In this document: positions 8,367-24,107 of the stretch, piece by piece
How the letters are laid out: each line of letters starts with the position of its first letter
Numbering within the stretch: position 1 is the first letter of the stretch
NCBI RefSeq assembly: GCF_900111105.1
Contig: NZ_FOGC01000001.1
Span: 162,323 to 194,322, forward strand
Reading direction: 5' to 3'
DNA from: Rosenbergiella nectarea
Lineage (GTDB): Bacteria > Pseudomonadota > Gammaproteobacteria > Enterobacterales > Enterobacteriaceae
DNA length: 32,000 nucleotides
The notes under the pieces: generated by a model
What the model was told of the DNA's origin: nothing
The model's database searches: none
Seen by the model: the letters and a program-made list of their open reading frames with translations, nothing else
Position numbers and translations under genes: made by a program

Positions 8367-8393
8367 GGCCACGTTTACACATCCCCTTCAGTG

Positions 8394-8479
8394 CCGAAGT
8401 GGCGAAATCGGTAGACGCAGTTGATTCAAAATCAACCGCCCTTTGGGTGTGCCGGTTCAAGTCCGGCCTTCGGCACCAA
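8394..8479 (+). tRNA. leuX: tRNA-Leu (anticodon CAA), leuX type
   Basis: 86 nt. Acceptor stem GCCGAAG/CTTCGGC followed by ACCA; anticodon stem GTTGA/TCAAC with loop TTCAAAA (CAA); long variable arm. Both ends are near-identical to E. coli leuX as recalled. leuX is a classical P4-integrase target. Confidence 0.95.
8461..8479 (+). repeat. attL core of satellite 1 (3' end of tRNA-Leu)
   Basis: This 19-nt segment recurs at 18776-18793 with a single G deletion. Confidence 0.85.
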
Positions 8480-8641
8480 TCACTCTTCCGGCAACGTCCG
8501 AGAAAGTCTGAAAAATCCTTTTAAATCATACATTACCATCATTTTAGCGTCCGAGGACGTCCGAGAAGTTCCGTTGCAATCCAGACCCTTCTGGGGGCAT
8601 AATTGGGGGCATATTAACTTCGATGGAAAATGTGCCCCCAA

Positions 8642-9895
8642 ATGAAGCTGAACGCCAGACAGGTAGAGACTGCGAAGCCAAAAGATAAGACTTATAAATT
8701 AGCTGATGGTGGAGGGCTATATCTTGAGGTATCAGCGAAAGGATCTAAATATTGGCGAATGAAGTATCGCCGCCCAACTGATAAGAAAGAAGATCGCTTA
8801 GCTTTTGGGGTGTGGCCTATTGTTACGTTGGCGCAAGCACGAGCGAGACGAGACGAAGCTAAAAAATTAATTAGTCAGGGTATTGATCCCAAAGCAGAGC
8901 AGAGAGAGGCTCAATCTGAAAACTCCGGTGCCTATAAGTTTGAGACCATTGCTCGAGAGTGGCATGCCAATAATAAGCGATGGAGCAGTGACCATAGCGC
9001 CCGCGTTCTGCGATATTTAGAGTTATATATTTTTCCGTTTATCGGTGGTGAAGATATACGTCTACTCAAGACAAGTAACTTACTAGCGCCAATAAAAAAA
9101 GTTGATGCCAGTGGTAAGCATGATGTCGCACAGCGTTTACAGCAAAGAGTGACGGCAATAATGCGCTATGCAGTACAGAATGATTATATCGATTCGAACC
9201 CCGCAATGGATATGGCTGGCGCATTGACTACGACCAAGGCTCGCCACTATCCAGCTTTACCCTTTCACAGATTCCCAGAGTTTTTAGAGAGGCTTGCCCG
9301 ATACAGAGGTCGCAAGATAACTCGTATTGCAGTTCAGCTATCACTTTTAACCTTTGTAAGGTCTAGCGAGCTTAGATTTGCTTGTTGGTCTGAATTCGAT
9401 TTAGAACGTGCATTATGGCGTATTCCTGCTAAGCGTAAAGAAGTGGAGGGTATTCGCCATTCCCACAGAGGAATGAAAATGAAGGAAGAGCATATAGTCC
9501 CTCTTAGTTCACAGGCACTCGCCATACTCTATGAGCTTAGACAGATTAGTGGTGATAACCATCGTTTATTTCCGGGGGATCATGATGCAAGAAAAGTGAT
9601 GAGCGAAAATACGGTGAATGCTGCTCTAAGAAAAATGGGTTACGATACCAAAACCGAAGTTTGTGGACACGGTTTTAGAACTATGGCCAGAGGGGCTTTA
9701 GGTGAGTCGAGCCTATGGAGTGATGACGCTATAGAGAGACAACTTAGTCATACGGAACGTAATAACGTTAGAGCGGCCTATATTCATACATCTGAACATT
9801 TAGAAGAACGCCGTCTAATGGTACAGTGGTGGGCCAATTATTTAGATAAGAATATTGATGAGTATATAAGTCCGTATGAATTCTCTCATCCATAG
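8642..9895 (+). CDS. int: P4-type tyrosine integrase (intact)
   Basis: The N-terminus MKLNARQVETAKPKDKTYKLADGGGLYLEV is the DUF4102 arm-binding pattern. The catalytic region has HGFRTMARG (HxxR) and RAAYIHTSEH (Tyr). The ORF is open from 8630; the ATG at 8642 fits the family N-terminus better. Confidence 0.92.
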   Translation: MKLNARQVETAKPKDKTYKLADGGGLYLEVSAKGSKYWRMKYRRPTDKKEDRLAFGVWPIVTLAQARARRDEAKKLISQGIDPKAEQREAQSENSGAYKFETIAREWHANNKRWSSDHSARVLRYLELYIFPFIGGEDIRLLKTSNLLAPIKKVDASGKHDVAQRLQQRVTAIMRYAVQNDYIDSNPAMDMAGALTTTKARHYPALPFHRFPEFLERLARYRGRKITRIAVQLSLLTFVRSSELRFACWSEFDLERALWRIPAKRKEVEGIRHSHRGMKMKEEHIVPLSSQALAILYELRQISGDNHRLFPGDHDARKVMSENTVNAALRKMGYDTKTEVCGHGFRTMARGALGESSLWSDDAIERQLSHTERNNVRAAYIHTSEHLEERRLMVQWWANYLDKNIDEYISPYEFSHP

Positions 9896-9952
9896 AAAAA
9901 ATATTGATAATTAAAATATTAATTGAAAATTTTTAAAATTAGGAAAGTATCT

Positions 9953-12049
9953 ATGATCGAAATATTGGGAATGAAACCTAGGAATCATTACTTAGGTAAT
10001 ATGATTGAGGAAGAGATAAGTAAAATAGAGGGTACCAAAGGATATTACTATAGGGGGTTTCCTGTTATATCCCTCTCTGATAGCGGAATATCTTTAGATG
10101 GAATATTATGCTCCGAAAAACATGGGTTAATTATATTTCATTTCACAGAGGAAAGTGAAATAACTGATGATTACATTGAGTCTATCGATGAAATTCATAT
10201 GAAATTTATATCTAAGATTTCAGAAGTAAAATCATTAACAAAAAATAGAATGTTGAACCTTCCTTTAAACAGTATAGTTTTTTGCCCTAACTCTAGTAAC
10301 CACGAAAATATCGATTTTGATGAAGGACTTTTTTTATCAGATAGAGCAGAAGTTATTTCAGAATTTATGAGTTCAATTAATTGGGGGGATGGTGGGTTAT
10401 TAGAAACCTTATTATCCAACATCCAATCATTATCTAAGTTGAAGTCTAAGAAAAAACGGTTTTATGTCAAGAAAAATGATTCGAAGGGAAGTGTGTTAAA
10501 AAGGTTAGATAGTTCCCTTGCAACACTGGACTCCAGTCAAACAACTGCTGTTCTTGTTAATATAGATGGTGTCCAGAGAATTAGAGGGCTGGCGGGTTCA
10601 GGAAAAACAATTGTTCTAGCTAGAAAAATAGCACATATCCATTCACAAAATCCTGATTGGAAAATAGCTGTAACGTTCAACAGTAGATCGCTAAAAGAAC
10701 AATTAAAATTTTTGATAACAGCATTTTCAGGTGAAGATGGAGTTGATTGGGATAACGTTGAGATAATACATGCTTGGGGAGGAACAAAAATACATGGTAT
10801 GTATTATAAAGCATGCCTTCTGCATAATGTACCTTTTTATGATTTTGGCGAATCTAAAAGTTTAATGGAAGAAGGTGATACTCCATTTCAAGCTGTTTGC
10901 AGGAATTTTCTAGAAGCTAAAAAAGAAGATATACCATTATATGATTTTATATTAGTGGATGAGGCACAAGATTTTTCTGTAGAATTCCTAAGAATCTGTT
11001 ACAGCCTTTTAAAAGATGAAAAAAGATTAGTCTATGCTTATGATGAATTACAAAACTTAGGTGACCAATCCATGCCATCTCCTGAACAAATATGGGGTAA
11101 GAAAGAAGATGGTACACCAGTAGTCTCATTCACTTCTGAAGAACAAGACATAACTTTAGATATTTGTTACCGAAATCCTGGACCTATTCTTACTACAGCT
11201 CATGCCTTAGGATTTGGTATCTACCATACTCCTATGATCCAAATGTTTGATTTTGAGGGGTTGTGGACAGAAATAGGTTATCAAAAAATTGATGGTGAAT
11301 TGGTTGAGGGCAAGGATGTAATTCTTTCAAGAACTCAAGAATCAAGCCCATCTTTATTAAGTTCGCATAATTCAATTGATGAAATGATTAATTTTAATAA
11401 GTTTGTTAATAAAATTGATCAATCTAATTGGATTGCTCAGCAAATTATAAAAAATATAAAAGAAGAAGAGCTCTTACCAAGTGATATTGTCGTTATTCAC
11501 CCCGATACTATGCGGATGCGTAAGGAAGTTGGTTATTTAAGAGATCTCCTTTTTAATAATGGTATTAATAACTCTATTGCAGGTATAACTAGCTCACCTG
11601 ATGAGTTTTTCTCTGATAACTCTGTAACATTTACTTCAATATTTAGAGCTAAAGGTAATGAAGCAGCTATGGTTTATATAATGGATGCTGATTATTGTAA
11701 CGTTGACTATGAACTATCAAAGAGAAGAAATATCCTTTTCACGGCGATGACTAGAACAAAGGCATGGTTGAGAGTCTGTGGAATAGGTCAATTTTTCGAT
11801 GGTTTGGTAACAGAATTCGAGACGGTTAGAAATAAAAACTTCTCATTGGACTTTCGTTATCCAACTGCAGAAGAACGCGATAAAATGAAAGTCGTTAATA
11901 GGGATATGACTGTTCATGAAAGGAAAAGGGTAAGTGCAGCTAAGTTGAATGCTCAAAATCTTAGTAACTTACTTGATGGGCAAGTCAAAATTGAAGACAT
12001 TCCTGAAGACTTGAGGAACGCCTTAATTAGAAAGCTAACTGGTGGATAA
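9953..12049 (+). CDS. SF1 (UvrD/Rep-like) helicase-family ATPase with an unassigned ~200-aa N-terminal domain; satellite hotspot cargo gene 1
   Basis: Walker A GLAGSGKT (nt 10586-10609), Walker B LVDEAQDF (nt 10952-10975), YRNPG, SIFRAKGNEA and LFTAMTRTKAWL (UvrD_C-like motifs). The likely start is the ATG at 9953 after AGGAAA; the ORF is open from a TTG at 9923. Composition is strongly AT-rich relative to the satellite backbone. Confidence 0.8.
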   Translation: MIEILGMKPRNHYLGNMIEEEISKIEGTKGYYYRGFPVISLSDSGISLDGILCSEKHGLIIFHFTEESEITDDYIESIDEIHMKFISKISEVKSLTKNRMLNLPLNSIVFCPNSSNHENIDFDEGLFLSDRAEVISEFMSSINWGDGGLLETLLSNIQSLSKLKSKKKRFYVKKNDSKGSVLKRLDSSLATLDSSQTTAVLVNIDGVQRIRGLAGSGKTIVLARKIAHIHSQNPDWKIAVTFNSRSLKEQLKFLITAFSGEDGVDWDNVEIIHAWGGTKIHGMYYKACLLHNVPFYDFGESKSLMEEGDTPFQAVCRNFLEAKKEDIPLYDFILVDEAQDFSVEFLRICYSLLKDEKRLVYAYDELQNLGDQSMPSPEQIWGKKEDGTPVVSFTSEEQDITLDICYRNPGPILTTAHALGFGIYHTPMIQMFDFEGLWTEIGYQKIDGELVEGKDVILSRTQESSPSLLSSHNSIDEMINFNKFVNKIDQSNWIAQQIIKNIKEEELLPSDIVVIHPDTMRMRKEVGYLRDLLFNNGINNSIAGITSSPDEFFSDNSVTFTSIFRAKGNEAAMVYIMDADYCNVDYELSKRRNILFTAMTRTKAWLRVCGIGQFFDGLVTEFETVRNKNFSLDFRYPTAEERDKMKVVNRDMTVHERKRVSAAKLNAQNLSNLLDGQVKIEDIPEDLRNALIRKLTGG

Positions 12050-12052
12050 TGT

Positions 12053-12706
12053 ATGACACCTAGAGAAACTGTGATGTCTATCAATAAAATTTCATCTTAT
12101 TTGATTAGGGAAGGTTTTAGTGATAGCCAGAATTACCCTCGGCTTTTAGAAGATAATAGGAATTTTTATGTTGATTACTCGGGGTTTTCAGATATTTCAA
12201 AGTCTTTAAAAAATATTGATTATACTGAAATATATGATTATTTAGACGAGAATAATCAATATAATTTCAAGCTAATTGATGGTGCATTAGTTCATTTACT
12301 CTACACTTTCGATAAATCAACAGGTTTTTCTAAACAACGCCTATGCTACTTTCCTGCGCCTAACTTTGAACCATTTCAGAATGATCCAGAGTTATATCTT
12401 GATGAAGGAAATATGTATGCTGATGTTGTCAATAGATCGATTTTACCAGTACCTATTAGAGTAGATTTTGCACCTGATGATGGTAAGGAGATAATTCATC
12501 CTATTTCACATCTTACTTTAGGACAGTATAAAAATTGTAGGATACCGATGACTTCTCCTTTATGTCCTGTGACATTTATGAAGTTTATTTTAAGTTCATT
12601 CTATGGTGCAGCTTTTTTTGAAAGCAAATTTTCTTTATCGCATCATCTATATGACCATACCATCTTTCCAAGTGAAAGAAATGTGCTCCATTTGTCAATT
12701 GAATAA
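12053..12706 (+). CDS. 217-aa partner protein of the helicase (possible DUF2290-family); satellite hotspot cargo gene 2
   Basis: The ATG lies 3 nt after the helicase stop, with GGTGGA as a Shine-Dalgarno sequence inside the upstream gene's end. It shares the AT-rich composition. There is no signal peptide or TM segment. A conserved-looking block is IRVDFAPDD...IIHPISHLTLGQYKNCRIP. The DUF2290 assignment is inferred from the gene-pair architecture and was not searched. Confidence 0.55.
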   Translation: MTPRETVMSINKISSYLIREGFSDSQNYPRLLEDNRNFYVDYSGFSDISKSLKNIDYTEIYDYLDENNQYNFKLIDGALVHLLYTFDKSTGFSKQRLCYFPAPNFEPFQNDPELYLDEGNMYADVVNRSILPVPIRVDFAPDDGKEIIHPISHLTLGQYKNCRIPMTSPLCPVTFMKFILSSFYGAAFFESKFSLSHHLYDHTIFPSERNVLHLSIE

Positions 12707-12749
12707 CATACATATCAAATTGACTATTCGTTGCATGTTGAGATTAAGA

Positions 12750-12790
12750 GTGTGCAGTGCACACGCCCGCCCGCCTGCGCACTTCACTTA
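12750..12790. other. Candidate cos (cohesive end) region of satellite 1
   Basis: A 15-bp palindrome GTGTGCAGTGCACAC (12750-12764) abuts a GC-rich block CGCCCGCCCGCCTGCGCAC. Read on the minus strand, 12757-12775 is the 19-mer GGCGGGCGGGCGTGTGCAC, which shares the GGCG...GCAC ends and the length of the P2/P4 cos as I recall it. It sits in the same position as cos in P4, between the cargo and the late-operon terminator. The block is conserved at 22297-22315. Confidence 0.35.
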
Positions 12791-12939
12791 ACAATGCATT
12801 TTTCATGCACCTGTGATTTTATGCTAAAGCCCATATATCAAGGGCTATAGAGAGAATTTGAGTGCATGAGACTCATGCATTTTCATGCAGCATAGACATG
12901 CACTCAAGAAAAAGAACGCTAGCCAGAAAAAGGAGGTGT

Positions 12940-12962
12940 AAAAAAGCCCAACTTAATTGGGC
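12940..12962 (-). terminator. Rho-independent terminator of the psu-delta operon
   Basis: On the minus strand the hairpin GCCCAA-ttaag-TTGGGC is followed by a T6 run. It lies 38 nt downstream of the delta stop, and a copy is conserved at about 22457-22478. Confidence 0.75.
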
Positions 12963-12999
12963 GTGGAAGATAGTGAGAGGCAGGCTGGAGGCTCATTAA

Positions 13000-13275
13000 T
13001 TAGGTTTGAGCGTGTCGGTCGGGCAACGTGAATGATGAGCCATAACGGCGTAATGATTGACCTTTACGCATCTGCATTTTTGTTTCCTCGACTGTTTGCT
13101 CCTCTATTAGCCGTTCTGGTTTGCTGATAATTTTCTCTACATTTTCTAAAGCCGTAAATGTGCAGGAGCAATCGAGGTTTTTGCATTGGTAATAAATCCG
13201 CTTCACCGAATCAGATAGATACTGACTTGATCGGCAATGCGATATTTGTAAACAAAAGGGGCACTTTATCGCCAT
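13000..13275 (-). CDS. Ogr/Delta-family zinc-finger late transcriptional activator
   Basis: 91 aa: MAIKCPFCLQISHCRSSQYLSDSVKRIYYQCKNLDCSCTF, showing the CxxC...CxxxxC pattern and the YxQCxNxxCxxTF block shared with P2 Ogr. Confidence 0.88.
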   Translation of the reverse strand: MAIKCPFCLQISHCRSSQYLSDSVKRIYYQCKNLDCSCTFTALENVEKIISKPERLIEEQTVEETKMQMRKGQSLRRYGSSFTLPDRHAQT

Positions 13276-13994
13276 TATTTGCCACCTTGCTTCTTCGCTT
13301 CTCTACGAGCTCTGATTTTACTTCTTGCCGCAGGCGTTCCGCCCTTACGATAGTCATAATGCGAAGCGGATGCGGGGTAATGACCTACTAAGGTAAACGC
13401 AGGGTCATTTGGTAACTCGTCATTACTAAATACTCGTGATAAAACTTCATTTTTGACGAAATTAGTCAATGCGGTTTTCTCGTCATAATGGTTTTCAGTC
13501 GAATCCCGTAACGTCTCATTCATTAGAGTGAGTAGCTGTGTTAATTGCGCCCCATGCTGACTCATAAACTCGGCCCAGAGCTGGTTGGCCCGAATTCGTT
13601 TAAAATGTCTGTGTGCACCAATATATTCGAATGCTCTATCGGCAGTATCCCAAGGGATAGTCTCGATTTCTTCCTCAGTAGTTGAAATAAGTTCGTCAAA
13701 TACCTCTAACGATTCGCGATCTAAGGCTACCTCCGAGCGGAGTGCTCGCATTTCTTTTGTCATTTCACCTTCGTTGGCGCGGAACAACTCATGCCAGCGT
13801 TTGTTTTGCGCCTCAGCATTCGCAGCCGCCTCATTACGACGGGCTTTAATTGTGTCCACGCGGGCAGTCGCTTTACTTTCAATTGCTCGGGCGGCTAACC
13901 ATGCGCTCTTTGTCTTTTCAACATCTGCAATGGCGTTTTGTGTCGCGGCGGGTAAATAATTAATGAGGTCGTTTTGTGGGGTGCTCATGGTCAT
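13275..13994 (-). CDS. Psu-like protein (P4 polarity suppression / capsid decoration family), candidate
   Basis: 239 aa, with its stop overlapping the delta start (TAATG). Blocks KSAWLAAR, EFMSQHGAQL and GGTPAARSKI resemble P4 Psu blocks KAAWLQRK, DFMQQHGTAL and KFTPAQ as recalled. It is longer than P4 Psu, and the gene order is psu-delta rather than delta-psu. Confidence 0.55.
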   Translation of the reverse strand: MTMSTPQNDLINYLPAATQNAIADVEKTKSAWLAARAIESKATARVDTIKARRNEAAANAEAQNKRWHELFRANEGEMTKEMRALRSEVALDRESLEVFDELISTTEEEIETIPWDTADRAFEYIGAHRHFKRIRANQLWAEFMSQHGAQLTQLLTLMNETLRDSTENHYDEKTALTNFVKNEVLSRVFSNDELPNDPAFTLVGHYPASASHYDYRKGGTPAARSKIRARREAKKQGGK

Positions 13995-14147
13995 GCTCCA
14001 GTCAGTTTACTTTGTGTAAGTTAATTGTGCTGGAGCAGGCACAAAGGTTCGAGCAGATGAAATTGTATCATCGATAAAACAATTCCCTTTCTGGCTAGCC
14101 AAAAGAAGGTGCTCAAGGGCTTAATCAATTTAAAGTTTAACTATAAT

Positions 14148-14249
14148 TGTTCACCATTGTTCACCTTTAAAGAAAAGATATTAAATACATATAGTTATAG
14201 GGTGAACAATTAAAAATAATCCTTCACCCATTGTTCACCACTCTTCACC
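14148..14249. repeat. P4-type replication iteron cluster (crr-like)
   Basis: TGTTCACC at 14148-14155, 14158-14165 and 14232-14239. The inverted copy GGTGAACA is at 14201-14208. TTCACC variants are at 14223-14228 and 14244-14249. Confidence 0.75.
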
Positions 14250-14551
14250 CTCAATTATTTTCATTGCTTTGGGTAAAGGAATTATTTTTAATCTTTTTTC
14301 TTATATAAAAATCAATATTAATCACTTTATATCATTAGATTTTTCCGTAATGTCAGCGATTTGGCAAACACTGTCAAACCTTTGGAAACCTCATAAAACC
14401 TCAGGCCAAAATCAGTTTTTTTCAAGTGTTTTTTTCTAGTGACTCACACAATCCGACCTTGTTGCTTTCCCTTTAAATATGCTGAAAATAAAGAGCTACC
14501 AGATGCTAGGGAGATGTCCTTAGCACTTACTAGACGATTACGAGGTAGCTC

Positions 14552-14815
14552 ATGTTAGGACAATCATCGCCGTCATTTTCAACTCCATTACCTGCAATTC
14601 CCTTGCCTTCACCCGTGCAAGAACGCTTCATGCGTTTACCCGAAGTTATCCGTGTCAGCGGCCTTTCTCGTGCCACGATTTACGAGTTAATGCGCAAAGA
14701 CGCTTTCCCGCAAAACGTATCGCTCGGCGGTCGCAATGTTGCTTGGCCTGAAAGCGAAATCAATGCGTGGGTAAAAACGCGTATGGCTGCACGCACTCAA
14801 GGAGGCACGCAATGA
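14552..14815 (+). CDS. alpA: AlpA/Vis-family DNA-binding protein (excisionase / transcriptional regulator)
   Basis: MRLPEVIRVSGLSRATIYELMRKDAFPQNVSLGGRNVAWPESEINAWV is the canonical AlpA HTH. The ATG at 14552 has a GAGG Shine-Dalgarno sequence. An internal ATG at 14630 would give the more usual ~61-aa size. Confidence 0.88.
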   Translation: MLGQSSPSFSTPLPAIPLPSPVQERFMRLPEVIRVSGLSRATIYELMRKDAFPQNVSLGGRNVAWPESEINAWVKTRMAARTQGGTQ

Positions 14816-15015
14816 TTACGTTATTTATTGATAACCAGACACACAAATTGTCGCTTGAAGAAGCAAAAAATCTCGCCTTATCAATTGCCCATGAGGTAGA
14901 TGGTACTGGCGGCGTTCAAACCTTTAATACTCAATCACACCGTTTTTCCGTCAAACGCTCTAAGGATGTCGAGGCATCCGCAATGCCGGACTCAACTGAC
15001 TTAACGAACTGTTGA
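14812..15015 (+). CDS. Small hypothetical protein (P4-like early operon)
   Basis: The ATG at 14812 is preceded by AGGAGG and overlaps the alpA stop (ATGA). The protein is 67 aa (MITLFIDNQTHKLSLEEAKNL...). The longer form from 14767 in the ORF track is unlikely. Confidence 0.55.
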   Translation: MITLFIDNQTHKLSLEEAKNLALSIAHEVDGTGGVQTFNTQSHRFSVKRSKDVEASAMPDSTDLTNC

Positions 15016-15226
15016 GGTAGCAATGACCTCATTGATTTCATTCCTCGGCTTGCACGCCGAGGATGTTCTCTGCTACAGTATTTTCACTGTCGCAAAATCG
15101 ATAGTCGGGCGTAGGAACCCGTGTAACTCATTGGTGACACCAGACGCGCCATGCGTCTTTTTTTGTGTCTATGCCTTAGCGCACCTTATTTTTAGACCGC
15201 AAGTAAACTGCTGTCTGAGCAAAATT

Positions 15227-15559
15227 ATGGTGGCTCGGGCGGGGCAGTCTTCGGACTGGCCGGTATCCATTGAGGCCGGTATTCCTACCCCCGTTCGAGT
15301 CACCACCAATGAGCGTAGGAACTCCGGTGGTGGCAATAATCGCTACTCAATGGAGATTGTCGCTATGGCTAACCCTTCCGTATTATCACACCCGAATTTT
15401 ATCTTTGTCTTTGCCGCTATTCGTCGAATCGATACCCAAGCTCGCGTCTGTATGCTTCGCATTACTGCCTGTGATGAACGTAGCGCCCGTATGCAGCTTG
15501 TGCGTGAATACGTTCTGTCGTTGGCCGCCCGTTTGCCTTTATCGGGAGGTATCGCATGA
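15227..15559 (+). CDS. Ash-family / Icd-like (host cell division inhibitor-like) protein
   Basis: MVARAGQSSDWPVSIEAGIPTPVRVTTNE...GGGNN resembles the Ash family N-terminus. MANPSVLSHPNFIFVFAAIRR...RITACDERSARMQLVREYVLSLAARLP resembles Icd-like proteins of P4-type islands. The ORF is open from 15023, but that N-terminal extension looks non-genic. Confidence 0.6.
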   Translation: MVARAGQSSDWPVSIEAGIPTPVRVTTNERRNSGGGNNRYSMEIVAMANPSVLSHPNFIFVFAAIRRIDTQARVCMLRITACDERSARMQLVREYVLSLAARLPLSGGIA

Positions 15560-15780
15560 GTCAGCACATCCTCTCTACTCGTGATTTAGTGTGCCTTGAG
15601 CATATCCGCAATGCAGGGCGCTTTATTAACGAAAGTATCGTCGAGCAAGAAGCCCAGCAAATCTCTTCCCCGTTACAGCGTAGCCAACTGGCCTCGCTCA
15701 TTTTCCTTATGACTGAACAGTTAAATGGCGTGGTGACGCGCTGCCATGATAATTGGATGAATGAAGAGGTGAAATCATGA
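15556..15780 (+). CDS. Hypothetical protein (P4-like early operon)
   Basis: 74 aa, with an ATGA overlap with both the upstream and downstream genes, which indicates translational coupling. Confidence 0.55.
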
Positions 15781-16103
15781 AAGCACAATCTCCTAATACA
15801 GCATTACAACTGGCGTTAACCCGTCGTGCCGTGGCCTGTGCGTGGTTAACTGTTTGTCATGAACAACAGCGCTATCTTCGCCTTACCCTTGTGCGTCTTG
15901 AGTCTTACATTGAAATGGAACTCGAGAACTTCTATCTGCGTCAATACGGCGTGGAACAAGGCCAAGAGATTGCCTGTGCGTTCTTGAATGATTTACTGGT
16001 GACAACGCCTGTTAACGCTACGCCCTGCCTGAGTTTTCTTGGCAATGTTGTGATGGATGAGTTAAGCAGCCGCATTAACCCTGCACCTGTGACCGTTCAC
16101 TAA
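15777..16103 (+). CDS. Hypothetical protein (P4-like early operon)
   Basis: 108 aa, coupled by ATGA to the previous ORF. It ends 11 nt before the AGGAGA-preceded alpha start. Confidence 0.55.
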
Positions 16104-16114
16104 GGAGAAGACAG

Positions 16115-18442
16115 ATGAAAAACTTTGTATCGGAAACCGCGAGTGCGGCACGGGGTAGCTGGGCGCAGGTTTTCCCTGCGTTGGGCTTAAATCTTATTAA
16201 AAATCGCCATACTGAATGCCCGTTATGTGGCGGTAAAGACCGCTTTCGTTTTGATGATGAAGGCGAGCGTGGAACGTGGATTTGTAATCAGTGCGGTGCG
16301 GGCGATGGGCTGGAATTAGCCTCTAAATACCTGAGTGTTAATATTACCGAAGCTGCCCGCCGAGTGAGAGAGGTTATTGGTGAGTGTGAAGCTAATCCTA
16401 CAACCATAATGCCCACACCTACTCACGATAAAGCGCAATTACAGGCGCAAGCGGCAACGATAGCGCAGGAGATTGTGAGTAGTGCTATTGAGTCGGAGAA
16501 TAGCGCTTATTTAACGCGCAAAGGCTGGCAATCAGTCGTCAGTTTAACATTGACTAAAGCGCAAAAAATCGCCCTCACCCAGTATCGTCGAGGGGATTTG
16601 ATTATCCCTCTGCACAATATGGACGGTGAGCTAGTTAATGTTCAGTTGATTAACACTGAAGGTGAAAAACGCACCTTAAAAGGCGGTCAAATTAAAGCCG
16701 CAAGCCACATCTTAGGTGCCGACAAGCCCGCAAAACGTATTTGGCTGGCTGAGGGCTATGCAACGGCGTTAACCGTGCACAAGCTCACAGGCGAACAAGT
16801 GTGGGTCGCGTTCTCGTCTGCCAACTTCCTTTCTCTGGCTAGCTGCATTAAAGAAAAGCACCCAACGCTACCGCTGATTATTGCCGCTGACAGAGACTTG
16901 AACGAGGTAGGACAGCAGAAGGCTCAAAAGGTGGCGGACGAGTTTAACGCTATGCTGGCATTGCCACCGTTATTTGGTGATTGGAATGATGCCTATATTG
17001 AGAACGGTGCTGAGAGGACGACACAGGCATTACGTCAGGCTATTCTCACTCAAAAGCAAAGCCCTTTTGAAGTCATGAGTTCTTCGGAGTTTACTGCGAT
17101 GAGTGTTGATGCGAAAGCCACAGCCATTGCAGAGCATTACCACAATAACCTTGCGATTGATGAAAGTGGCGAGATACTCAGCCGCTATGAAGGGGGCGCA
17201 TGGAAAGTGATTACCGGAAATCAATTTGAACGCGATGTTGTGCAACTCTATCAAGCGATTGGCGCATCGTTCTCAGCAGGTAAAATTTCTGCGTTGATTA
17301 GTACGCTAAAACTCATTCTACCTCAGCAGAAAGCCCCTTCACGCCAACTGATTGGCTTTCTTAATGGTGTCCTTGATACCCAATCCGGCACATTCAAACC
17401 GCATCAGCGTCAAAACTGGTTGCGTACCGTCAATAATGTCGCCTACACCACGCCATTACCCGAAGAGTCGATAGAAAGTAATGCGCCTCATTTTTGGAAA
17501 TGGTTAAACTTCGCCGCCGCAAACAACACAGTTAAGCGTGATGTTATTTTAGCGGCCTTATTTATGGTGCTCGCTAACCGCTATGATTGGCAGTTATTCC
17601 TTGAGATAACGGGACCAGGCGGCACGGGTAAAAGCCTGTTAAGTGAAATAGCCACTATGCTGGCAGGTAATGACAACACCTTCTCAGCAAAAATCGAAAA
17701 CTTGGAGCTATCGCGCGAACGTGCGCCAATCGTGGGGCGTTCACTCATACTGTTACCTGACCAAGAGAAATGGTCAGGTGATGGCGCAGGGATTAAAGCG
17801 ATAACAGGGGGCGATGCCGTGTCGGTTGACCCTAAATATAAAGATGCGTATTCCGCTCACATTCCAGCGGTTATCATCGCCAGTAATAATAACCCGATGC
17901 GATTTACCGATCGCAGCGGAGGTATTTCACGCCGTCGAGTGATATTACATTTCGCACAGATAATTCCTGCCCGCGAACGCGATCACCAACTCGCCGACAA
18001 AATCCGTGAAGAGCTACCTATCATCGTTCGCCAGCTAATGAAACGTTTTGCTGATCCCAATCAAGCAAAAACCCTGTTACAGAATCACCAAAACTCACCG
18101 GAGGCGATAGGCATTAAGCGTGAAGCCGATCCAATGGCTGATTTTTGCGGCTACCTCTTTTCTACGCCGGAAGCAACTGGGCTTTATATGGGCAATGCGA
18201 GTATTAGACCGATGCAGCCAAGACGCTACCTCTATCACGCTTACTTAACCTTTATGGAAGCGAATAACTTTCGTAATCCGTTAAGTATGAAGAGTTTTAG
18301 CCAAGCATTAGAGAGTATCTTGCGCGAATATGGGTTTAAGTATGTTAGTCGCCGGACAAAGAACGGTATACAGACGAATTTAGACCTGAAAGAAGAGAGC
18401 AACGGCGATTGGCTGCCGAAATGCGATGAACCCATGTTGTAG
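16115..18442 (+). CDS. P4 alpha-type bifunctional DNA primase / replicative helicase
   Basis: 775 aa. It has an N-terminal zinc ribbon CPLCGGKDRFRFDDEGERGTWICNQCG, a Toprim-like region (WLAEGYATAL...IAADRD) and a C-terminal P-loop helicase (ITGPGGTGKSLL, LLPDQE). Size and order match P4 alpha (777 aa). Confidence 0.92.
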   Translation: MKNFVSETASAARGSWAQVFPALGLNLIKNRHTECPLCGGKDRFRFDDEGERGTWICNQCGAGDGLELASKYLSVNITEAARRVREVIGECEANPTTIMPTPTHDKAQLQAQAATIAQEIVSSAIESENSAYLTRKGWQSVVSLTLTKAQKIALTQYRRGDLIIPLHNMDGELVNVQLINTEGEKRTLKGGQIKAASHILGADKPAKRIWLAEGYATALTVHKLTGEQVWVAFSSANFLSLASCIKEKHPTLPLIIAADRDLNEVGQQKAQKVADEFNAMLALPPLFGDWNDAYIENGAERTTQALRQAILTQKQSPFEVMSSSEFTAMSVDAKATAIAEHYHNNLAIDESGEILSRYEGGAWKVITGNQFERDVVQLYQAIGASFSAGKISALISTLKLILPQQKAPSRQLIGFLNGVLDTQSGTFKPHQRQNWLRTVNNVAYTTPLPEESIESNAPHFWKWLNFAAANNTVKRDVILAALFMVLANRYDWQLFLEITGPGGTGKSLLSEIATMLAGNDNTFSAKIENLELSRERAPIVGRSLILLPDQEKWSGDGAGIKAITGGDAVSVDPKYKDAYSAHIPAVIIASNNNPMRFTDRSGGISRRRVILHFAQIIPARERDHQLADKIREELPIIVRQLMKRFADPNQAKTLLQNHQNSPEAIGIKREADPMADFCGYLFSTPEATGLYMGNASIRPMQPRRYLYHAYLTFMEANNFRNPLSMKSFSQALESILREYGFKYVSRRTKNGIQTNLDLKEESNGDWLPKCDEPML

Positions 18443-18448
18443 TATCTG

Positions 18449-18472
18449 AACCGGCGAAAGCCGGTTTTTTTT
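18449..18472 (+). terminator. Rho-independent terminator after the alpha gene
   Basis: Hairpin CCGGC-gaaa-GCCGG (18451-18464) followed by a T8 run (18465-18472). Confidence 0.85.
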
Positions 18473-18498
18473 ACCTGCTTTAAAAGGTGTAGGATGAT

Positions 18499-18569
18499 TG
18501 TTCACTCTTCACCTCATTGTTCACCCTTTAACGTCATGAAAAATATGAATAAATCACCAAAGGTGAACA
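18499..18569. repeat. P4-type replication iteron cluster (ori-like)
   Basis: TGTTCACT at 18499-18506, TCTTCACC at 18506-18513, TGTTCACC at 18518-18525, and the inverted GGTGAACA at 18562-18569. The cluster is flanked by GTGTAGGAT copies at 18487-18495 and 18572-18580. Confidence 0.7.
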
Positions 18570-18775
18570 GTGTGTAGGATTTTTCATAAAAAAAACTAAT
18601 TTTTTTATTTTTTCTATCAAAACACATATCCGGTATTTGAAATTGTCTTCTCAAATGGGATTCAAGCTAATAGGTCACATTTGTTATAAGAAAATTGCAG
18701 GGGGCACATTAAGGGGCATATAAAAATAAAAAGAAATTAAAATCGGTTAAATACATATACTTAACCTGTTTTATG

Positions 18776-18793
18776 AGTCCGGCCTTCGCACCA
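18776..18793 (+). repeat. attR of satellite 1 and attL of satellite 2 (copy of the tRNA-Leu 3' end)
   Basis: AGTCCGGCCTTCGCACCA is 8461-8479 minus one G. The downstream sequence is then homologous to the int-upstream region of satellite 1. Confidence 0.85.
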
Positions 18794-18932
18794 ATCACTC
18801 TTCCGGCAACGTCCGAGAAAGTCAAAAAAATCATTTTAAATCATATATTATCATCAGTTCCTCGCCTGAGTATGTCCGAGAAGTTCCGTTGCAATCCAGA
18901 CCCTTCTGGGGGCATATTAACTTCGATGGCAA

Positions 18933-20202
18933 ATGTGCCCCCAAATGAAGCTGAACGCCAGACAGGTAGAGACTGCAAAGCCAAAAGATAAGGTTTATAA
19001 ATTAGCTGATGGTGGAGGGCTATATCTTGAGGTATCAGCGAAAGGTTCTAAATATTGGTGTATGAAGTATCGCCGCCCAACTGATAAAAAAGAAGATCGC
19101 TTAGCTTTTGGGGTGTGGCCTGTTATTACGTTCGCGCAAGCACGAGCGAAACGAGATGAAGCTAAAAAATTAATCAGTCAGGGTATTGATCCCCAAGCAG
19201 AACAGAAAGAGGCTCAATCTGAAAACTCTGGTGCGTATAAGTTTGAGACTATTGCCCGAGAGTGGCATGCCAATAATAAGTGATGGAGCAGTGGCCATAG
19301 CGCCCGCGTTTTGCGATATTTAGAGTTATACATTTTTCCGTTTATCGGCAATGAAGATGTACGCCTACTCAAGACAAGCCATTTATTAGCGCCAATAAAA
19401 AAGTTGATGCCAGTGGTAAACATGATGTCGCACAGCGTTTACAGCAAAGAGTGACGGCAATAATGCGCTATGCAGTACAGAATGACTATATCGATTCAAA
19501 CCCTGCAATGGACATGGCTGGCGCATTGACTACAACCAAGGCTCGCCACTATCCAGCTTTACCCTTCCACAGATTCCCAGAGTTTTTAGAGAGGCTTGCC
19601 CGATACAGAGGTCGCAAGATAACTCGTATTGCAGTTCAGCTATCACTTCTAACCTTTGTAAGGTCTAGCGAGCTTAGATTTGCTTGTTGGTCTGAATTCG
19701 ATTTAGAGCGTGCGTTATGGCGCATTCCTGCAAAGCGTGAAGAAGTGGAGGGTATTCGCCATTCTCACCGTGGGATGAAAATGAAGGAAGAGCATATAGT
19801 CCCTCTTAGCACACAGGCCCTCGCTATACTCTATGAGCTTAGACAGATTAGTGGTGATAACCCTCGTTTATTTTCGGGGGATCATGATGCAAGAAAAGTG
19901 ATGAGCGAAAATACGGTTAATACTGCGCCTCATACAATGGGTTACGACACCAAAACCGAAGTTTGCGGACACGGTTTTAGAACTATGGCGAGAGGAGCTA
20001 TAGGGGAATCAGGTTTATGGACTGGTGACGCTATAGAGAGGCAACTCAGCCATACGGAACGCAATAATGTTAGAGCGGCTTATATTCATACTTCTGAGCA
20101 TTTAGAAGAACGCGTTTAATGGTGCAGTGGTGGGCTGATTATTTATCCAGTATTACAAATAAATACTTAACGCCTTACGAATTTGCAAAAAAAAGCGCGT
20201 AA
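18933..20202 (+). pseudogene. P4-type integrase pseudogene
   Basis: Collinear with 8630-9895 at high identity but carries three lesions. CGA is changed to TGA at 19281-19283. An A7 run is shortened to A6 at 19397-19402 (a -1 frameshift; A7 in the intact copy at 9094-9100). A 1-nt deletion creates a TAA at 20117-20119, while the remaining C-terminal coding sequence continues to 20202. Confidence 0.92.
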
Positions 20203-20345
20203 CTGGTTTTGTACCGTCCTTTTCAGTTTATTATTGTGTAGATAATCCTACAAGCCCTAGGGCATGAATTAGGTAAGTAAAGGCGTTAGTTTTGTCCTGA
20301 CCGCGGCACAATTAACGCTTATTCTTATTCACAGTGAGAAATTAT

Positions 20346-20588
20346 ATGAGCAAAACCCTCAATGGCGTTCCTGACGCTTCCGCCCTTGTCGAGGGTGTTA
20401 GCGCTACGGAGTGCTTTACATTTGGTGATCCCATTCCAGTACTCGACAGAAGAGAGTTACTTGATTACGTCGAATGCGGGCGATATGAGCATTGGTATGA
20501 GCCACCTATCAGTTTTGACTGGTTAGCCCGCACATTCCGCAGCGCCGTGCATCACAGCTCACCGATTCAAGTAAACGTAATATTTTAA
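20346..20588 (+). pseudogene. N-terminal fragment of a P2-like (PBSX-family) phage portal gene
   Basis: CFTFGDPIPVLDRRELLDYVECGRYEHWYEPPISFDWLARTFRSAVHHSSPIQV matches the conserved portal N-terminus as recalled. The ORF ends after about 80 aa, where the composition drops to AT-rich. Confidence 0.6.
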
Positions 20589-20768
20589 TCGGACTAACTA
20601 ACCAGCCTTTAGAATTTTTTCACATGAAAGGAGATTATGCCTAGAAAAAAGATTTCAAGATGCCTATTAATTTTTTTAAAAAAAACCTTCAAATTCCCGA
20701 TCAAAATCAATGAAGTGCCAAAAAAAGTTCGTAGTATGTTTGACTCTGAATAGATAAAGGATGAAAAA

Positions 20769-21416
20769 ATGCTAGGACCAGAAAAAGGAATGCTGACATT
20801 CAAGGCTGAAGGCAATAATTTAAAATCAAGTAGGGATTATTCAAGAATCATACACTGGCCTGGAAGCTCATTATCATGCAAAAAGAATAACTCAGGGGTC
20901 ACTATTGGTAGAGGGTTTGATCTTGGTGATAGAACAAAGGTAGAGGCATTAATAATTTTAAAAAAAGCGGGGATAGAAAAAGAAAAAGCAGAATTCATAG
21001 CTGAAGGTGCGAAATTAAAAGGATGTTTAGCTAATAACTTTGTTGCTAACCAAAGGAATGCTATTAATGAAATTACGGAAAGGCAGCAATTAAATTTATT
21101 AATTATAAACTACAATGAATCAAGAAAAGACGTTGAGAGAATATGTAAAAGTATATTCACAATACAAAAGTACCACTCAAAACCTAATACATCACCAGCT
21201 GAAGCCTGGGGTAACATCCCAGATAAAATAAAAGAAGTACTAGTAGACTTACGCTTCCGTGGTGACTACAGCAAAAGAACCAGAAAGTACATACAAAAAT
21301 TGGCATACGATGGAGACATAAAAGGATTCGGGAAAGTGATCTCAGATAGGAAAGTTTGGGTTGAAGTTCCGTATGACAGGTTCAAAAGAAGGATTGATTT
21401 TTATGAAAATGAATAA
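20769..21416 (+). CDS. Pesticin-C-terminal-like (T4-lysozyme-fold) muramidase; candidate antibacterial effector
   Basis: 215 aa. FKAEGNN...NNSGVTIGRGFDLGDRTK parallels pesticin GFEGFN...STGVTFGSGVDLGQRSK (catalytic Glu plus the Gly-rich turn). There is no N-terminal delivery or receptor-binding domain and no signal peptide. Confidence 0.6.
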   Translation: MLGPEKGMLTFKAEGNNLKSSRDYSRIIHWPGSSLSCKKNNSGVTIGRGFDLGDRTKVEALIILKKAGIEKEKAEFIAEGAKLKGCLANNFVANQRNAINEITERQQLNLLIINYNESRKDVERICKSIFTIQKYHSKPNTSPAEAWGNIPDKIKEVLVDLRFRGDYSKRTRKYIQKLAYDGDIKGFGKVISDRKVWVEVPYDRFKRRIDFYENE

Positions 21417-21756
21417 TGCGATTCTCTTTTTGTTAATATATTCGTTTAATGTTTGTGCAGCTTTTACAGAACCAGAAATGAGTCAATTAGCAGAGATAAA
21501 TAAAAATTCCATTGAAAAAACAAAAAGGGAGAAAAAAAATCTCGAATTGATCATAATAAAAACAATAAAAAACCTCCCAGAACAAAAGAATAAAATAATT
21601 GACCTGAATAAATCATGGAGCGAAACCATTAATAAAAAATGTAAGCTTTCAATATTTGAGTCAATAAATACAGACGCAGAAATAGCAGAGGAAAACTTAT
21701 GTTTATACTCTGAATACAAATTAGAAGCGGATTTCTTTGACGGTTTGAATTATTAA
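21403..21756 (+). CDS. Periplasmic LprI/DUF1311-like protein; candidate cognate immunity (lysozyme inhibitor-like)
   Basis: The ATG at 21403 overlaps the muramidase gene's end by 14 nt. It has a signal peptide MKMNNAILFLLIYSFNVCAA, and LNKSWSETINKKC...EENLC fits the DUF1311 W...C...C pattern. Confidence 0.55.
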   Translation: MKMNNAILFLLIYSFNVCAAFTEPEMSQLAEINKNSIEKTKREKKNLELIIIKTIKNLPEQKNKIIDLNKSWSETINKKCKLSIFESINTDAEIAEENLCLYSEYKLEADFFDGLNY

Positions 21757-22516
21757 TTGACAATGTGAGGTGCGTGAAAAACATCTCATGATTTTTGTAA
21801 AAATACCACTTACTTTCTCAATGCTGTCAGGGTGTAATAGGTTATTGTTAGGTTTTCGATGGAAAAGGTTATCGAGCTTCGATAAATGGACATCATCAGA
21901 TTGGATACACTATCAGGATAGGTGGTTTTAAAACTAAACAGACAAATCATAGTTGGTAACGGCATTTCTTTTAATCTAAATTCGAGTGTGGGGGATTAGA
22001 TGAATAACAGGAAAACTGTTTAAATACCTAAGATATCTGGAAGGCCATTTAAATATATTACAAGTACCGCCCAAATGCTTTATAAAAGATTATATGCGTA
22101 ATCCATTATAACTATACGTCTTCCGCTCTTAAAACCGCTAAAAATGACTTAGATGAATTCTGATGCCATGAATCGTTATATATCCAACTGAGTAGCCGCT
22201 GATTCCATAACTGTATGACAACAAAATATCAAACTATAATATGGCCTTACACCTGCGTTTTCTGCGGAGCGTCAAATCCGGCGCTTTACCCCTCTGCGCC
22301 CGCCCGCCTGCGCACTTCACTTAATAATGCGTTTTTATGCTAAAGCCCATATACCAAGGGTTATAGAGAGAATTTGAGTGCATGAGACTCATGCGTTTTC
22401 ATGCAGCGTAGACATGCACTCACGAAAAAAATGCTAGCCAGAGAAAGGAGGTGTAAAAAAGCCCAATTTATTTGGGCTTGAGGAGAGAATGAGAGTCAGA
22501 ATTGATACCCATTAGA

Positions 22517-22792
22517 TTAGGTTTGAGCGTGTCGGTCAGGTAAATTGAATGATGACCCGTAACGGCCTAATGATTGGCCTTTGCGCATCTGCATTTTCGT
22601 TTCCTCGACTGTTTTCTCCTCCGTTAGCCGTTCAGGCTTGCTGATAATTTTCTCTACATTTTCCAAAGCCTTAAACGTGCAAGAACAATCGAAATTTGTG
22701 CATTAGTAATAAATCCGCTTCACTGAATCAGATAGATACTGGCTTGAACGGCAATGCGCCATCTGTAAACAAAAAGGGCACTTTATCGCCAT
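22517..22792 (-). pseudogene. Ogr/Delta-family activator pseudogene
   Basis: Same length as 13000-13275, but codon 30 is TAA (22705-22703) where the intact copy has CAA. It translates as MAIKCPFCLQMAHCRSSQYLSDSVKRIYY*. Confidence 0.88.
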
Positions 22793-22997
22793 TATTTGCC
22801 TCCTTGCTTCTTCATTGCTCTGCGAGTCTTGATTCTACTTCTTGCAGCAGGTGTTCCCCCTTTATGAAAGTCATAATGAGAAGCTGACTCAGGGTAGTGG
22901 CCTACTAAGGTAAACGCAGGGTCGTTTGGTAACTCGTCGTTACCAAAGGCTCGTGACAAAATTTTACTATTAACAAAATTGGTTAACGCGCTTTTAC
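22792..22997 (-). pseudogene. Psu-like gene remnant (C-terminal ~68 codons only)
   Basis: It translates to ...LTNFVNSKILSRAFGNDELPNDPAFTLVGHYPESASHYDFHKGGTPAARSRIKTRRAMKKQGGK*. Homology to 13275-13481 stops abruptly near 22997. Confidence 0.85.
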
Positions 22998-23307: not shown

Positions 23308-23742
23308 TCAAAACTCTCTCTCAACAATCAAGTACCCATTGAACCTTACAGAGCACTCATATTTATTTTGTAGGCTAGAAGTAATGAAAGTGTTTTTTTG
23401 ATTTTTTTCATTTCTATAGATATATTTTGCAATGATTACTTCGGTATTGTCTGTAGAGTAACCTTCGATATAATTATTAAGACTGAGTATATGAGTGTTC
23501 AGTTTTTTATAGTCCTCTTTGGCCAGTTGCTCAGCATAAATTTTCGTGATAGGTGATACTGAAATAACCTCAACGCTGACATTTTTCTGGATAATCTGAT
23601 CTCTACTAATATTCATATCCTCAACGATTGCGTCGGTTAACCCTATATACATCGAGGCACCGATTTTAGCGCAGCCAACATTGTTACTGGCGACTGATTG
23701 GGTGGATAACATTACTAAAAGCAGCCCAATAAATTTATTCAT
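23308..23742 (-). CDS. Secreted protein; candidate immunity (Tldi-like) for the upstream Tlde1-like effector
   Basis: 144 aa with a signal peptide MNKFIGLLLVMLSTQSVAS. Its start overlaps the effector stop (TAATG). It is AT-rich. Confidence 0.6.
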   Translation of the reverse strand: MNKFIGLLLVMLSTQSVASNNVGCAKIGASMYIGLTDAIVEDMNISRDQIIQKNVSVEVISVSPITKIYAEQLAKEDYKKLNTHILSLNNYIEGYSTDNTEVIIAKYIYRNEKNQKNTFITSSLQNKYECSVRFNGYLIVEREF

Positions 23743-24107
23743 TACTCAACCTCTAATAAATTATCATTACTGTCAGTTAATAATTTTCTAAAAGCAAAAT
23801 CCAAAATAATACACCCCTCCGAAGCTTCGCCAGGATGTTTTTGACTGTCACCGTGAATCATAAAACCGCTTCGACCACACATCTGATTGGAGGGTGAAGG
23901 CGTCAGTCTCAACGTCAAACGGCCTGTTTTGGGGTGATGGAAAGGTTTACCAATGGTATAAGTGCCTTTAGGAATGGGGCCTTTTGCTTTCACACATTGG
24001 TTGTCACTATTATCTTGGTAGCCGGGACGGCCTGAATATCTTGCTGAAAACCGGTAATATCCATTAAGAAAAAACTGCTTAGTACTGACTCGATATAACC
24101 ATGCCAT
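23742..24107 (-). CDS. Tlde1-family (DUF2778) L,D-transpeptidase-like peptidoglycan effector
   Basis: 121 aa. GPIPKGTYTIGKP...LTPSPSNQMCGRSGFMIHGDSQKHPGEASEGCIIL carries the YkuD-like H-x(n)-GC catalytic signature and the DUF2778 layout. Confidence 0.78.
   Translation of the reverse strand: MAWLYRVSTKQFFLNGYYRFSARYSGRPGYQDNSDNQCVKAKGPIPKGTYTIGKPFHHPKTGRLTLRLTPSPSNQMCGRSGFMIHGDSQKHPGEASEGCIILDFAFRKLLTDSNDNLLEVE

Follow-up and report, generated by a model that had tools for sequence, protein, structure and literature searches.

The 32,000-nucleotide stretch of Rosenbergiella nectarea DNA analyzed here (contig NZ_FOGC01000001.1, positions 162,323 to 194,322; hereafter, the window) contains two adjacent genes, encoding a helicase and a DUF2290 protein, which we predict, with a probability of about 0.9, to be a functional copy of the defense system Helicase+DUF2290 (Rst_HelicaseDUF2290), and to occupy, as exchangeable cargo, the int-cos hotspot of a P4-like satellite that is integrated at a tRNA-Leu gene. 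The system itself is already described and experimentally validated: Rousset et al. (2022) reported it from the P4-like satellite hotspot, and the copy from Klebsiella pneumoniae SB5961 specifically inhibits phage T7 (PMC9122126). The Rosenbergiella nectarea pair is therefore a new member of this class, not a novel system. A first-pass annotation, made from the sequence without database searches, had proposed that the pair was either such a member or a related, undescribed variant; matches to PADLOC and Pfam profiles decide in favor of the former. The known int-cos defense hotspot now extends to an Erwiniaceae nectar bacterium, and the locus can be labeled Helicase+DUF2290. It consists of the following features:

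9896-9952, plus strand: AT-rich intergenic leader that holds, in its sequence, the Shine-Dalgarno motif AGGAAA 8 nt before the ATG
9953-12049, plus strand: helicase subunit, 698 aa (full-length match to PADLOC PDLC03002; Pfam UvrD-helicase and UvrD_C_2)
12053-12706, plus strand: DUF2290 subunit, 217 aa (Pfam PF10053; PADLOC PDLC02999; alignments; AlphaFold2 (AF2) model)

Both genes match the corresponding profiles over their full length. The ORF of gene 1 matched the PADLOC "Helicase" model PDLC03002 with an E-value of 9.8e-263 (residues 26-705 of the 708-aa ORF aligned to positions 16-704 of the 707-position model), as well as Pfam UvrD-helicase and UvrD_C_2, both above their cut-offs. Gene 2 matched the PADLOC DUF2290 models PDLC02999 (E 4.8e-75) and PDLC02998 (E 4e-55), and Pfam DUF2290 (PF10053; E 1.3e-46, 159 bits against a cut-off of 25). 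The features looked for in a helicase-DUF2290 locus, namely a helicase match, a DUF2290 match and adjacent, co-oriented genes (here with a 3-nt gap), are found in the window. Because these are the models that define the Helicase+DUF2290 system, the full-length matches identify the pair as a representative of it.

The first-pass annotation described two plus-strand ORFs, 9923-12049 and 12053-12706, separated by 3 nt, located between the integrase gene and a cos-like block, and far more AT-rich than the satellite backbone. The ORF coordinates confirm this arrangement, with a junction that reads TAA, TGT, ATG, and the composition agrees as well: the GC fraction of the operon is 0.332 compared with 0.438 for int, 0.455 for delta/psu and 0.479 for the alpha primase. 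The start of gene 1, originally placed at TTG 9923, had to be corrected to ATG 9953, giving a protein of 698 aa, because AGGAAA lies 8 nt upstream of this codon and because 698 aa is the length both of the Rosenbergiella nectarea helicase in the NCBI database, a 100% match, and of the close homologs (distant homologs reach 718 aa). The DUF2290 protein, too, matches a Rosenbergiella nectarea record at 100%. A promoter-like match at 9911-9939 is weak and at chance level, and neither promoter nor terminator scans yielded counts above those for shuffled sequence.

Among the catalogued variants, the closest to the window pair is Escherichia coli P4-hotspot family #23, annotated as NERD/UvrD_C_2/AAA_19 and DUF2290 (68 occurrences; Rousset Table S), which occupies the same position and encodes proteins of the same lengths, 698 and 217 aa. 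The sequences for comparison were taken from the supplementary tables of Rousset et al., where only 399 aa of each helicase are available. The DUF2290 proteins of the window and family #23 are 59% identical, and the helicases, over the 399 aa available, 69% identical. For the experimentally tested pFR91 system of K. pneumoniae SB5961, the respective values are 36%, and 42% over the first 399 aa. The window pair and pFR91 share the gene order, the domain organization (a NERD-like domain and an SF1 UvrD-like core in one protein, DUF2290 in a separate one), the int-cos location and all invariant residues, but the window helicase belongs to the 698-aa clade and that of pFR91 to the 718-aa clade, and the window comes from an Erwiniaceae nectar bacterium. 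A nucleotide search of 5,426 complete E. coli genomes found no match to the operon.

Scanning a DUF2290 alignment against one genome per GTDB species yielded 80 loci from Gammaproteobacteria, Cyanobacteria, Bacteroidota, Planctomycetota, Nitrospirota, Bacillota and other taxa. The earlier proposal depended on homologs of gene 2 residing next to helicases, and in this respect it holds up well: a full-length helicase is encoded directly upstream of DUF2290, on the same strand, in 77 of the 80 loci, with the DUF2290 start codon located between -32 and +11 nt from the helicase stop in 72 of these 77. The other three loci comprise one disrupted by an IS, in which a truncated DUF2290 adjoins an ISL3 transposase, one on a contig of 2 kb that is too short for a verdict, and one orphan. 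In the reverse search, among viral contigs of IMG/VR, DUF2290 was found directly downstream of 16 of 17 relatives of the helicase, even at 29-33% helicase identity; in the 17th, the downstream region is cut off by the contig end. The identities of the two proteins to their counterparts in the window co-vary (Spearman rho 0.70 across 96 loci). No helicase with another partner was encountered among these loci, and fusion proteins were absent from the best 150 of the 1689 DUF2290 clusters (at 50% identity) retrieved in an exhaustive profile search, all of these being single-domain proteins of about 220 aa. The helicase and DUF2290 thus appear to form a strictly coupled, co-diverging module, and an obligate complex accounts for the nearly invariable pairing, together with the lack of any other partner, better than a modular sensor that exchanges its effectors would.

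Two peculiarities of individual loci were noticed. In the window, the helicase and DUF2290 ORFs share a single reading frame (12047-12055) and are parted only by the TAA and TGT codons; given that a shared frame occurs in only 6 of the 77 related loci, this looks like chance rather than programmed readthrough. The orphan DUF2290 (254 aa; locus L049, 5963-8657), from a metagenome-assembled Crocosphaera genome, lacks a helicase and follows three tandem genes of the Uma2 family, which are putative restriction-endonuclease-like proteins, and precedes a ComM/Mg-chelatase-like gene.

The pair behaves as a mobile two-gene cassette that also occurs outside satellites. In Bacillus mycoides (CP020743; locus L085, 1358-9939), it is part of an approximately 8-kb island with RadC fragments on both flanks, which appears to have inserted into radC. 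The same island holds a tyrosine integrase, an HTH gene, a 450-aa ORF and a gene of the beta-lactamase family. In Vibrio, the pair adjoins a polB-like gene, and in Pseudomonas, a complete pair adjoins a ComM-like gene (locus L087, 3188-7660), so that the ComM-like surroundings of this pair and of the Crocosphaera orphan may represent a recurrent insertion neighborhood.

These observations bear on the possibility that the pair serves the satellite-helper relationship or housekeeping DNA repair and not host defense. Although the pair resides in a satellite that depends on a P2-like helper, and although its helicase is UvrD-like, we regard this explanation as very improbable. The pair is present in the integrative island of Bacillus and at unrelated sites in Vibrio and Pseudomonas, it has the composition of AT-rich cargo, and the homolog from K. 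pneumoniae SB5961 blocks T7 (PMC9122126). Moreover, against the NCBIfam equivalog models of the housekeeping helicases PcrA, Rep, UvrD and helicase IV, gene 1 scored only 11-24 bits compared with cut-offs of 543-965; hence it is not a repair helicase, and the profiles do not place the pair in a housekeeping repair pathway, an outcome that the first-pass annotation had recognized as fatal to its proposal. The curated model that the helicase core matches best, apart from those of its own family, is NCBIfam NF053713, "STM2767 family DEAD/DEAH box helicase" (124 bits against a cut-off of 550, E 7e-36), possibly a sister family made up of Salmonella island helicases.

The helicase can be divided into four parts:

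Residues 1 to about 115: degenerate NERD-like domain
Residues about 116-190: helical subdomain and basic linker
Residues about 190-620: SF1A UvrD-like core, with L192-D193..Q196..A199-V200 as the Q motif, Walker A K218 and Walker B D336/E337
Residues 621-698: conserved C-terminal tail (78 residues)

All five motifs quoted in the first-pass annotation as a complete SF1 set were located, in the 698-aa numbering, at positions 212 (GLAGSGKT), 334 (LVDEAQDF), 406 (YRNPG), 564 (FRAKGNEA) and 595 (LFTAMTRTKAWL), and they fall in invariant columns of an alignment of 40 helicase family members (A2). The SF1A motifs that are invariant across the family are LDxxQxxAV (the UvrD-type Q motif), GSGKT, TFNSRS, DEAQD, YDELQ, CYRN, RAKGNE and FTAxTRxKAW, which cover the Q motif, Walker A, Ia, Walker B (DExx), III, IV, V and VI, and a PDB profile search with the helicase finds PcrA and UvrD1. 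The C-terminal tail contains a strongly conserved motif, FxYPT..ER..M..VNRDM..E. Its description as basic applies to the window copy (pI 9.2) but not to the family, where the median pI is 6.8.

The suggestion that the N-terminal domain is NERD-like gained some support. The AF2 model of residues 1-200 is of moderate confidence (predicted local distance difference test score, pLDDT, 76), and Foldseek searches with it repeatedly retrieved proteins of the restriction-endonuclease fold, namely NucS, McrC, Bax1, Card1, VC1899, EcoO109I, BstEII and BbvCI, each match being weak (E 0.01-0.3, TM-score 0.27-0.42). Three of 27 N-terminal domains, that of the window protein not among them, touched Pfam NERD (best E 0.017), the only Pfam family touched by more than one of the 27. 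A sequence-profile search of this region against the PDB returned only noise (SdeA, at E ~1). Rousset et al. list an HHpred match of their tested homolog to NERD (residues 11-112) with 98.1% probability (PMC9122126). Given the recurrent restriction-endonuclease-fold matches, the contacts with Pfam NERD and the published HHpred result, the NERD-like assignment is reasonable. The first-pass annotation also remarked on the lack of an obvious D/ExK catalytic set, and the alignment agrees: D49 is conserved in at least 90% of the 40 sequences, but the D...(D/E)xK set is incomplete, with F-H-F in the strand where ExK would be expected in the window protein, H, N, S or I in the family, and no conserved Lys. 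Because the ExK is lost whereas D49 is retained, we read this domain as a probable inactivated nuclease fold kept for binding.

For DUF2290, an alignment of 49 sequences contains 21 invariant columns, and D76, R136, D138, H149, H153, R163 and F175 stay invariant after the addition of members from viral contigs, at 22-28% identity. The polar core maps to the window as follows:

12278-12541 (range enclosing the codons), plus strand: DUF2290 invariant core D76, R136, D138, H149, H153 and R163 (alignments A1 and A4)

The AF2 model of DUF2290 (pLDDT 85, predicted TM-score 0.85) has an alpha+beta fold with an antiparallel sheet. In this model, R136/D138, H153 and R163 are placed on three consecutive strands, an arrangement that would be compatible with a single site. 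The absence of a transmembrane segment, claimed at the outset, is upheld by a maximum Kyte-Doolittle value of 1.37 over 19 residues. The description of the protein as non-enzymatic-looking is, by contrast, doubtful, as six polar residues remain invariant down to about 22% identity. This looks like the conservation signature of an enzyme, with a site that would bind metal and/or phosphate.

Two specific catalytic assignments were considered and rejected. The H153-L-T-L segment resembles the HxTx motif of 2H-phosphoesterases, but its Thr is missing from divergent members, the would-be second motif (H213) lacks conservation, and no 2H fold turned up with Foldseek. Likewise, Q158-Y-K160 could have been the QxK variant of PD-(D/E)xK, but some members have Q in place of K160, and divergent ones do not retain Q158.

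The most far-reaching reading, to which we give somewhat less than even odds, is that DUF2290 is an unrecognized enzyme fold with a catalytic center made up of D76/R136-x-D138/H149-x3-H153/R163, and that it works solely in an obligate partnership with an SF1A helicase that has a dead NERD domain and co-evolves with it. The six invariant Asp, His and Arg residues, combined with the lack of a structural relative in two libraries, point to DUF2290 as the catalytic effector. On this reading, effectors licensed by a helicase would gain a new class in DUF2290, perhaps with a distant relationship to the TumE toxins.

The corresponding mechanism is modeled by analogy with Hachiman HamAB (PMC12278908) and Gabija GajB. 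The helicase and DUF2290 would be translationally coupled, and their products would form an obligate complex. The SF1A UvrD-like motor, in which all ATPase and translocation motifs are intact, would load on or track along DNA with ATP and, aided by the dead NERD domain, would sense a phage-specific DNA structure such as an end or an intermediate, or a phage protein; for the tested homolog, the phage is T7. The engaged motor would then license DUF2290, the putative effector enzyme, in which D76, R136-x-D138, H149-x3-H153 and R163 would constitute a metal/phosphate-binding site acting most likely on nucleic acid. As the outcome, phage replication would be blocked, either directly or through abortive infection. 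Of this scheme, the complex, the sensing step and the chemistry are inferred; what was observed is the identity of the genes, their pairing and the conservation. A literature search found no account of the mechanism of Helicase+DUF2290; several studies list or delete the system, and its domains are described as unexplored.

Several points weigh against this picture. The complex is deduced from genomics alone, and the enzymatic role of DUF2290 solely from the conservation pattern; alternatively, the invariant His and Asp residues could hold a metal for structural purposes or contribute to an interface. No relative of the DUF2290 model was found by Foldseek in the PDB (best E 0.29, TM-score ~0.1-0.2) or in BFVD, and a sequence-profile search against the PDB gave no match at E-values up to 10. 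The protein is acidic (pI 5.2; family median 5.6), which is unusual for a free-standing enzyme acting on nucleic acid and argues for action inside a complex with the helicase rather than alone. Finally, the tested homolog, pFR91, is only 36-42% identical to the window pair, and a lactococcal homolog protected against none of the phages tried (PMC11381338).

Hachiman, on which this scheme is modeled, is a complex of a nuclease and a helicase encoded by two genes; its helicase senses the state of DNA and licenses the effector (PMC12278908). However, this helicase, HamB, belongs to SF2 and the nuclease, HamA, to DUF1837; the two genes are in reverse order, and their products are unrelated in sequence to the window pair. 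Hachiman also has a broad spectrum, in contrast to the T7 specificity of the tested DUF2290 system. Gabija GajB and the PADLOC candidate C3a187 (NERD+UvrD) share the SF1A UvrD-like core with the window helicase (E 3e-8 and 5e-15, respectively), but these matches are weak and confined to the helicase core, and the partner of GajB is an OLD-family nuclease.

These parallels also bear on an alternative in which the helicase is itself the effector, stripping phage replication or recombination proteins from DNA or unwinding phage intermediates, with DUF2290 as a non-catalytic specificity or regulatory subunit. The invariance of all helicase motifs, the acidic character of DUF2290 and the lack of a match between it and any known catalytic fold are compatible with such a division of labor, and the conserved motif in the C-terminal tail of the helicase could be a docking site. 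We nevertheless consider it quite unlikely: a simple adaptor would not usually keep as many as six Asp, His and Arg residues invariant down to 22% identity, and in the helicase-containing defense systems with known mechanisms (Hachiman HamAB and Gabija GajAB), the helicase senses and the partner inflicts the damage.

A toxin-antitoxin or abortive infection module is another possibility, unlikely in our estimate, in which DUF2290 would be a translation toxin (a putative RNase) similar to TumE/DUF6516, held by the helicase and freed upon infection, so that growth stops but phage DNA is not attacked. In the HHpred results of Rousset et al., DUF6516 was the only other match for the tested DUF2290 (87.8%, E 2.9), with residues 74-185, a span that covers every invariant DUF2290 residue, aligned to the whole 83-position model (PMC9122126). 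TumE/DUF6516 is a validated translation-inhibiting toxin, a small alpha+beta protein without a match in the PDB that is usually encoded downstream in a bicistron (Durairaj et al. 2023; PMC10584680), and DUF2290 is likewise an alpha+beta protein with no PDB match encoded by the downstream gene. However, an HHpred E-value of 2.9 is not significant, the TumE partners are small antitoxins and not helicases, and DUF2290 is about twice the size of TumE. Furthermore, PF20126 had no HMMER match in the 49 DUF2290 members at E-values up to 10, and an hmmsearch of the DUF2290 core profile against the 4161 ORFs of the fetched loci found nothing related below E 0.2.

For the proposed mechanism, with DUF2290 as an enzyme licensed by the helicase, the invariant residues of DUF2290 are the candidates for mutation, and the dead NERD domain and the strict coupling of the pair are further targets for experiment. 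The window copy adds no unique handle on the mechanism; it is the comparative work that narrows the experiments.

The satellite around the pair includes the following features:

8393-8478, plus strand: tRNA-Leu(CAA) gene (ARAGORN); its 3' end, 8460-8478 (AGTCCGGCCTTCGGCACCA), is the left att core
8630-9895, plus strand: P4-type tyrosine integrase, 421 aa (Pfam Arm-DNA-bind_3, Phage_int_M and Phage_integrase; PHROG 1)
12750-12790: GC-rich cos-like block, the reverse complement of which aligns to the P4 cos core GGCGAGGCGGGGAAAGCAC
13000-13275, minus strand: delta, Ogr/Delta zinc-finger activator, 91 aa (Pfam PF04606, E 5e-16)
13275-13994, minus strand: capsid-related protein of the Psu/Sid family, 239 aa, at the sid position (Pfam Psu, E 2e-7; PHROG 6165, E 2e-44)
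14552-14815, plus strand: alpA (Pfam/PHROGs), in the regulatory-replication block 14552-18442
15023-15559, plus strand: Ash-family repressor (Pfam/PHROGs)
15777-16103, plus strand: DUF5375 protein (Pfam/PHROGs)
16115-18442, plus strand: alpha primase-helicase (Pfam/PHROGs)
18776-18793, plus strand: right copy of the att core (AGTCCGGCCTTC-GCACCA), a repeat of the tRNA-Leu 3' end with a 1-nt deletion

The att repeats at 8460-8478 and 18776-18793 delimit the satellite, which therefore spans approximately 8460-18793 (10.3 kb). The cos-like block was identified by its sequence and by alignment to the cos region of the pFR91 fragment (Rousset Table S); the region had no match in the phage nucleotide collection. 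The element had been called an intact P4-like satellite, and int, delta, alpA, alpha, the cos-like block and the att sites are indeed in place. Intactness is only partly demonstrated, though, because the Pfam and PHROGs annotation of the satellite genes identified no separate sid and epsilon, only one Psu/Sid gene. This lone gene encodes a protein (239 aa) close in size to P4 Sid and is located upstream of delta, as P4 sid is; the satellite in the window has no second psu gene between delta and cos.

The int, helicase, DUF2290 and psu/delta genes occur in the same order, with the pair in the same slot, in Erwinia billingiae and Atlantibacter. Within the psu-like/delta part, Erwinia billingiae (locus L081) has the layout of the window, and Atlantibacter (locus L082) the P4 order, psu followed by delta.

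Beyond the right att core, a second, decayed P4-like element is found in tandem (18776-22995), with a copy of the att core. Its features, and those just past it, are:

18933-20119: integrase pseudogene of the decayed element, about 91% identical to the first int at the nucleotide level and broken into two ORFs
20769-21416: Pesticin/lysozyme-like ORF, 215 aa, in the cargo of the decayed element (PF16754, E 1e-5)
21361-21756: 131-aa ORF with a hydrophobic N-terminus, overlapping the Pesticin/lysozyme-like ORF
22297-22995: block of the decayed element with a cos-like sequence, delta' (protein 89% identical to delta) and a truncated psu'
23308-24107, minus strand: Tlde1-domain protein, 121 aa (PF10908, E 1e-14), and, after it, a 144-aa ORF whose N-terminus resembles a signal peptide

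The int-cos slot of the decayed element (approximately 20120-22300) is occupied by a different AT-rich cargo, which includes an 84-aa ORF; none of the ORFs in this cargo had a PADLOC match. Just past the decayed satellite, the Tlde1 protein and the 144-aa ORF resemble an effector of the L,D-transpeptidase type, delivered by a type VI secretion system, and its immunity gene.

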